Source: Escherichia coli
Lineage (GTDB): Bacteria > Pseudomonadota > Gammaproteobacteria > Enterobacterales > Enterobacteriaceae
Reading direction: 5' to 3' (one strand)
NCBI RefSeq assembly: GCF_003334255.1
Contig: NZ_QOWU01000104.1
DNA: 5,452 nt
Shown: one piece after another, positions 1 to 242 of the stretch
How positions within the stretch are numbered: position 1 is the stretch's first letter
How the letters are laid out: each line of letters opens with the position of its first letter
Made by a program: the position numbers and the translations under genes
The notes under the pieces: model-generated
Seen by the model: only the letters and a program-made list of their open reading frames with translations
Database searches by the model: none
Told to the model about the DNA's origin: nothing

Positions 1-188
1 CCATCACCGCCCCCGGTATCCCGCTCATGCTGGCGAACCCAGACACGCAGAGTCTCCGGCGTACAGCCAATCTTTGGAGCAATGGAACAAATTGTCGCCC
101 ATTGTGAGTCATATTCGCCCTGACTTTCCAGAACCATACGGACTGCCCGTTGACGGACTTCGGGGGAAAAACGAATATTTTTAGTCAT
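1..188 (-). CDS. IS3-family transposase OrfA (HTH-containing N-terminal protein of IS629), first 62 codons only; runs off the window edge
   Basis: ATG at 186-188 (minus) preceded by GAGG. Translation is [63 protein letters not shown], typical of IS3-family OrfA. Frame is open to position 1. Not in the ORF track because no stop lies inside the window. Confidence 0.8.
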
Positions 189-242
189 CCTGTTTACCTC
201 TTTCTCAGGAAGTTTAGTCTCCAGGATTCCCGGGGCGGTTCA
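1..242 (-). mobile_element. IS629-group (IS3 family) insertion sequence, left (IRL) end; the body continues beyond the window start
   Basis: Reverse complement of 166-242 reads TGAACCGCCCCGGGAATCCTGGAGACTAAACTTCCTGAGAAAGAGGTAAACAGGATGACTAAAAATATTCG, which I recognise from memory as the IS629/IS1203 left terminal inverted repeat plus orfA leader. A near-identical copy (3 substitutions in 77 bp) sits at 5376-5452. Terminus TGAACC is at 237-242 on the minus strand. Confidence 0.85.

Follow-up and report, generated by a model that had tools for sequence, protein, structure and literature searches.

Two inversely oriented IS629-family elements of probably separate origin bracket ireA on an Escherichia coli plasmid

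Three subtypes of IS629, I (IS1203-like), II (Shigella-like) and III, were described in E. coli O157:H7 and O55:H7 by Rump et al. (2011, PMC3271280). These subtypes are 55-60 bp apart, coexist in single O157 genomes and were judged to be independently acquired (PMC3271280). Both elements and the two-subtype phenomenon are thus already known, and are ordinary for E. coli mobile DNA. In this report, two such elements were compared on either side of ireA, within a window of 5,452 nucleotides (the whole stretch of DNA that was analysed) and beyond its edges.

The window matched at 100% a 99,817-bp (99.8-kb) plasmid of E. coli G6/7 and G8 (NZ_CP060062 and NZ_CP060058). Symbioflor 2, a probiotic, comprises six genotypes, and two of them have names that match G6/7 and G8 (PMC4358396). 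A literature search for the ireA and IS content of the Symbioflor plasmids yielded a genome announcement and a review, neither of which mentions either. The annotated order on the plasmid is IS2 and an IS256-family fragment, an IS3-family element (minus strand), ireA, the YagK/YfjJ gene, IS100 istB with a truncated istA, an IS3-family element (plus strand) and the plasmid backbone. The features are as follows.

1-242, minus strand: left IS629-family copy (c1), cut by the window edge, with its IRL terminus at 242, a 54-nt leader and orfA codons 1-62
166-242, minus strand: the part of c1 (77 nt) for which the window also contains the c2 counterpart, with differences at 229, 210 and 175
243-370, minus strand: 5' fragment of IS1414 (IS256 family), comprising the left end and the first 19 codons (MDEKQLQALANELAKNLKT), cut at the IRL of c1
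433-2481, minus strand: ireA, TonB-dependent siderophore receptor of 682 aa (NF010011, 1513.9 bits against a cut-off of 1197)
3255-3977, minus strand: open reading frame of the YagK/YfjJ (inovirus Gp2) family, its 5' end entering the IS100 end
3927-5356, minus strand: IS100 (IS21 family) fragment, with intact istB (3993-4775) and the 3' 195 codons of istA (4772-5356)
5357-5375, plus strand: remnant of IncI1 trbA between the IS100 fragment and c2, of which GGC at 5373-5375 is one copy of the c2 target duplication
5376-5452, plus strand: right IS629-family copy (c2), cut by the window edge, with its IRL terminus at 5376, leader and orfA codons 1-7
L001 7933-9242, minus strand: full c1, 1310 bp, assigned to the Shigella/ExPEC IS629 subtype
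L001 14376-15685, plus strand: full c2, 1310 bp, assigned to the IS1203-type (STEC) subtype

The two IS629-family copies are inversely oriented, with both IRLs pointing inward, and both elements run past the window edges. In the interior, homology to CFT073 at the YagK/YfjJ reading frame ends at window position 3926, and the IS100 terminus replaces the 5' end of this Gp2-family gene (window 3255-3977 and 3927-5375); a search of the reading frame against NCBIfam gave zero matches. IS100 itself breaks off inside istA, where it joins trbA about 20 nt ahead of c2.

A repeat search of the window detected one long inverted repeat with arms at 166-243 and 5375-5452, 78 nt in length and 96% complementary. 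By hand estimate, a match of 75 of 78 positions is expected by chance in a 5.4-kb window with a probability below 1e-30. The IS sequences themselves end at 242 and 5376 (TGAACCGCCCC...), and the 78th matching base, C at 243/5375, belongs to the flanking DNA and matches by chance. Base-by-base comparison of the arms gave only three mismatches, listed below by plus-strand position, at exactly the positions given in the preliminary description.

229/5389, IS position 14: G in c1, A in c2, within the 25-bp terminal inverted repeat
210/5408, IS position 33: T in c1, C in c2, in the leader
175/5443, IS position 68: T in c1, C in c2, in OrfA codon 5

Codon 5 of OrfA reads ATT (Ile) in c1 and ACT (Thr) in c2, as had also been described. 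In the aligned set of copies, the differences at positions 14 and 33 are polymorphisms common to other IS629-family copies, while T at position 68 is private to c1 and its chromosomal twin (see below), Thr5 being found in every other copy examined. On this comparison, Ile5 is best read as a derived private change of c1 and its twin, and Thr5 as the general state.

The full copies of c1 and c2 are both 1310 bp in length and differ by substitutions at 59 of 1310 positions, with no indels (95.50% identity). The 3 differences in 77 nt seen in the window are therefore a fair sample of the whole. The copies differ throughout, being neither identical outside the window nor diversified by error. Both ends read TGAACCGCCCC...GGGGCG(A/G)TTCA, with inverted repeats of 25 bp carrying 3 mismatches per copy, and both copies have the 5'-TG...CA-3' ends and fall in the size range (about 1.2-1.5 kb) that are characteristic of the IS3 family. 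Each copy has an orfA of 108 codons and an open orfB frame of 317 codons, and in both the slippery motif GGAAAAAATGA (A6) at position 371 leads to a predicted OrfAB fusion of 404 aa; the OrfAB of c1 and that of c2 differ at 18 residues. A programmed frameshift and an AL1L pseudoknot are annotated by PGAP in both, and both thus have the predicted IS3-family organization of orfA and orfB with a -1 frameshift site. The transposase profile NF033516 was matched over its full length by c1 (363.2 bits) and c2 (364.7 bits), far above the cut-off of 160. Target duplications of 3-4 bp, another mark of the family, were found for c2 (GGC), for the chromosomal twin of c1 (AAC) and for the CFT073 copies (GAT and TCT). 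The 59 substitutions consist of 3 non-coding, 38 synonymous and 18 non-synonymous changes, and this 38:18 ratio is the signature of purifying selection in active lineages.

For the placement of c1 and c2, full copies were aligned from the G6/7 chromosome, CFT073 (n=2), pO157 Sakai (IS629 as annotated by the depositor), the S. flexneri virulence plasmid, an STEC chromosome, a PGAP-named IS1203-family copy and three other plasmids, and the grouping was made from pairwise differences and a neighbour-joining tree without bootstrap support. The c1 group includes the S. flexneri plasmid copy (11 nt different from c1), the right copy of CFT073 (12 nt) and the left copy of CFT073 (24 nt). The c2 group includes the copy of STEC 2014C-3061 (3 nt different from c2), the IS1203-family copy (14 nt) and the pO157 Sakai copy (18 nt). 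In terms of identity, the values for c1 are 99.2% with the S. flexneri plasmid copy and 96.1% with that of pO157 Sakai (51 nt different), and the values for c2 are 98.6% with the pO157 Sakai copy and 98.9% with the PGAP 'IS1203 family' copy. The subtype names were given through these proxies (the S. flexneri copy, the pO157 Sakai IS629 and the PGAP IS1203 labels) and not through the type sequences X51586 (IS629), U06468 (IS1203) and M19532 (IS3411), to which members of the isoform group should show an identity of about 95% or more; as assigned via the proxy copies, c1 would be a Shigella/ExPEC-type IS629 and c2 an IS1203-like element of the type common in STEC. Among 5,426 E. coli genomes, copies at least 99% identical were found in 1033 records for c1 and in 206 records for c2, and Shigella plasmids also carry c1-type copies. 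Within c2, 9 of the 14 differences from the IS1203-type copy fall in a patch at positions 641-761, and 8 of these 9 match a third lineage.

The distance between the two partners, 59 nt, is to be compared with 0-11 nt between c1, and 3-18 nt between c2, and copies elsewhere. The description of the two flanking ends as distinct isoforms holds for the full elements, which fell into two separate clades in the proxy-based tree. Independent acquisition, one of the two explanations then offered, also agrees with the data: copies in other genomes resemble each of the two much more than its partner does, c2 has its own target duplication in trbA together with uninterrupted sites in other plasmids, and c1 lies in a different context without a duplication. 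We consider it very probable that the plasmid ireA module is bracketed by two intact, inversely oriented IS629-family elements of different known sublineages that diverged elsewhere. The 59 substitutions would have built up while both lineages evolved as functional transposons in other genomes.

The right copy has the simpler surroundings. The sequence GGC is present on both sides of c2 as a 3-bp target duplication. An empty-site query, made by joining both flanks of c2 minus one GGC, was searched against the plasmid collection, and the uninterrupted site was found inside IncI1 trbA in NZ_CP027324 and NZ_CP042885. Because of the GGC duplication and the uninterrupted trbA sites elsewhere, c2 is a simple insertion into the backbone; it entered trbA by ordinary transposition of the IS3 type, generating the 3-bp duplication. 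This c2 junction also occurs in pDETEC45, p2-S1-CAM and CP055726. The insertion point is about 20 nt from the joint between the IS100 fragment and trbA. Truncation of IS100 by c2 was considered and rejected, since 19-21 nt of trbA lie between them and the c2 duplication is intact. The c2-type copies of pDETEC45 and p2-S1-CAM have since been invaded by a group II intron (ltrA, about 2.3 kb) at IS position ~787-795. In S1-CAM, the c1-type left copy was also invaded by the intron at the same IS site, so that this site has been hit in two subtypes (L005 10932-13194; L007 6448-4186 and 13462-15724).

The left copy lies within remnants of IS1414. Directly next to the IRL of c1 are the initial 128 bp of IS1414 (243-370), which are inverted with respect to the IS256-family 3' fragment beyond c1. 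This fragment on the far side of c1 is of the IS1414 type: the IRR of c1 abuts the 3' part of an IS1414-type element at ...AAGATTAAAAG, which continues the IS1414 sequence of CFT073. The window segment 243-370 is collinear with the intact IS1414 of E. coli 042 pAA until CTCAAAAC, where the native continuation is CCCTGAAGAC. The left end of the same segment abuts GACATTACTG, the sequence that the right end of IS1414 abuts in CFT073; no model of a single inversion or deletion for the inverted 5' fragment beside ireA fitted both arrangements. A target duplication of c1 was sought at both flanks and none was found, the sequence being AAC on one side and CTT on the other, which is consistent with later rearrangement. 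In 042 pAA, a c1-type IS629 copy (L017 1291-2600, 98.8% identical) interrupts IS1414 at a different position, with a second partial IS629 copy beside it. IS629-family elements seem to land in IS1414 frequently.

An exact twin of c1, private bases included, interrupts mcrC on the G6/7 chromosome (L009 1501-2810, corresponding to NZ_CP060061 4662842-4664151) and is flanked by a 3-bp AAC duplication. Since this twin is exact and has its own duplication in mcrC, c1 probably is, or recently was, mobile. For the G8 chromosome, no 100% copy of c1 was present among the matches listed, which hints at transposition of c1 from plasmid to chromosome in G6/7.

The related plasmids pDETEC45 and S1-CAM, without c1 at this point, read CTCAAAAC-TG-AATCTTG, where native IS1414 reads CTCAAAAC-CCCTGAAG. 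The junction, AAGATT-CA-GTTTTGAGG on the other strand, lies at L005 ~5000-5010 in pDETEC45 and L007 ~7530-7540 in p2-S1-CAM and corresponds to window position 242/243. These plasmids were considered as the empty site of c1 and rejected as such: the AAAAG left flank of the G6/7 plasmid continues the native IS1414 as in CFT073, and the retained TG is not native, CC being present at that point in 042 pAA. Because native IS1414 differs there, the TG is the leftover terminus of an IS629 after a deletion of 1313 bp. The scar thus keeps the terminal TG of the IS, and an IS629-family element at the left junction predates the split of the related plasmids.

The left copy of pN44b (L016 4789-6098, NZ_JBUBML010000003) is of the IS1203 type and sits at the same IRL/IS1414 nucleotide as c1. 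The first 77 nt of this copy are those of c2, the adjoining 3177 bp differ by 1 nt, and the IRR flank is different. Given the different subtypes of pN44b and G6/7 at the same junction, the subtype at the left position was exchanged in one lineage, and the implied breakpoint is within IS positions 1-13. Thus c1 may have reached the left position by conversion or replacement rather than by fresh insertion. One version of such a history, in which the left site first held an IS1203-type copy, as in pN44b, that was overwritten in the G6/7 lineage by a c1-type element through conversion or inverted repeat-targeted replacement, accounts for the identical IRL junction and for the near identity of the adjoining 3177 bp. 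It could also draw on a donor of the c1 type in the same strain, the 100% identical chromosomal copy, and on the mosaic right copy of pN44b, whose final ~800 bp are shared by the left copy. However, with its end-point within IS positions 1-13 the swap would have too little length for ordinary RecA exchange, the different IRR flanks imply that a larger rearrangement may be involved, and the direction of replacement is not readable from the two plasmids; we regard this version as rather unlikely. Still less likely, in our estimate, is a whole-element isoform swap at the left junction, in which the transposase would target an incoming IS629-family element to the end of the resident, the resident being lost thereafter. 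If true, the left junction would be a natural case of end-targeted replacement between subtypes of an IS3-family element, and such replacement would let IS copies evolve in concert independently of RecA homology.

The right copy of pN44b (L016 9276-10585) is a mosaic, of a distinct type from position 1 to ~480 and the same as the left copy of pN44b at ~517-1310, including a private C at 591. Because the flanking copies of pN44b share both this last stretch and the private base, exchange between such copies does occur, and the pattern suggests conversion between the two inverted flanking copies of that plasmid. For c1 and c2, divergence had been predicted to lower the chance of homologous recombination between them. 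The 4.5% divergence should indeed reduce RecA exchange, but it does not prevent it, the longest identical tracts between c1 and c2 being 144, 83 and 61 bp. RecA-dependent exchange in E. coli requires a minimum of roughly 25 bp. Recombination would thus be reduced and not abolished, because tracts of up to 144 bp exceed this minimum. Given the inverted orientation of c1 and c2, a crossover would flip the ireA segment and not excise it, and the two copies may still recombine in this way at reduced frequency.

We return to the two elements as separately derived, and to the question of whether they could have moved ireA together. A compound transposon, made of both copies and the intervening DNA, that brought ireA to the plasmid as one unit is suggested by three settings, the CFT073 chromosome, the G6/7 plasmid and pN44b, in each of which ireA lies between inverted IS629-family copies whose IRLs point inward. 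Neither one duplication around the whole unit nor the same outer ends at different sites, by which a compound transposon would be recognized, was found. The outer flanks, ...AAAAG and GGCATATG..., have no common duplication; c2 has its own GGC duplication and a counterpart with an empty site, and the CFT073 copies have their own GAT and TCT; and both the inner and the outer boundaries differ among the CFT073, G6/7 and pN44b settings. IS3-family elements transpose via an IRR-IRL circle junction. From this knowledge of the family, the unit, with IRR at both outer ends, would form no IRR-IRL junction. Movement as a compound transposon is on these grounds very unlikely, and ireA would not have been moved into its present site by the IS pair as one unit. 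Together, the boundaries point to recurrent IS activity around ireA and not to single-unit movement.

Long residence of the two copies had been offered as the other explanation of their differences, and here the data disagree. If one copy were a local duplicate of the other, diverged in place during long residence on the plasmid, the common length of 1310 bp without indels, the spacing of 5.1 kb and the inverted orientation would be expected. However, the DNA between the copies (5133 bp, about 5.1 kb) is 100% identical in pDETEC45 and 99.94% identical in S1-CAM; the figures for pN44b (3177 bp compared) and the CFT073 chromosome are 99.97% and 99.3%, respectively. Because the intervening DNA is 99.3-100% identical while the copies are 4.5% apart, divergence in place is excluded as an explanation of the differences. 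In addition, c1 has an exact counterpart in the chromosome, an STEC copy differs from c2 at 3 nt, and the 38:18 synonymous to non-synonymous ratio, the mark of purifying selection, is unlike decay in place. Taken together, local duplication has hardly any probability left. Sequencing or assembly errors, such as collapsed or mis-polished repeats, are the least credible source of the differences: IS copies are classic trouble spots for assemblers, but the differences are not errors because the same bases recur across independent assemblies (the c2 end is identical in pDETEC45, p2-S1-CAM, the left copy of pN44b and G6/7 with G8, four independent assemblies, and the private bases of c1 recur in the G6/7 chromosomal twin and the G8 plasmid), and every difference is a substitution that leaves both reading frames intact.

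The plasmid ireA module is, on the reading of separate origin, assembled from parts with separate histories, which has little import beyond bookkeeping. The annotation 'IS629' hides at least two sublineages, which should be kept apart in IS-based typing and in the inference of recent duplication. From a practical point of view, the plasmid of strains with probiotic names (G6/7 and G8) bears ireA, an ExPEC-associated siderophore receptor gene. On the G6/7 plasmid this gene is flanked by two IS elements that, judged by their intact sequences, appear to be functional, one of them having an identical chromosomal copy.

Among known systems, the chromosomal ireA locus of the uropathogenic strain CFT073 shares with the plasmid an ireA and Gp2-family gene segment that is 99.3% identical, two inverted IS629-family copies with IRLs inward, and IS1414 beside ireA. 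In contrast, both copies in CFT073 are of the c1 type, each with its own 3-bp duplication and at other positions; IS100 and trbA are absent, and IS1414 is nearly complete and differently arranged. Tn5 and Tn10, with their inverted IS arms, likewise have a passenger gene bracketed by two inverted IS copies. The present arms differ from theirs in being 4.5% diverged and of different subtypes, in the absence of a duplication around the unit and the presence of a separate duplication at one arm (c2), and in having two IRR outer ends, which, from knowledge of the family, cannot form the circle junction of IS3-family elements. Compared with IS1203 of E. coli O111:H- and the IS629 of pO157 Sakai, c2 has the same length, inverted repeats and orfA/orfB layout; at IRL position 14 it has A, whereas the pO157 Sakai copy has G there and then TT at 15-16, and the substitutions number 14-18 overall. 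The closest parallel is with the IS629 subtypes of O157:H7 and O55:H7, which agree with the present pair in the element itself, in the scale of divergence (55-60 bp, 4-5%), in coexistence and in the conclusion of independent acquisition, c1 resembling the Shigella-like type and c2 the IS1203-like type. The present case differs in that c2 bears a third-lineage patch of 9 substitutions (641-761), and in that the pair of subtypes surrounds a single virulence gene, which lies on an IncI1-like plasmid from a commensal/probiotic strain and not on an STEC chromosome.
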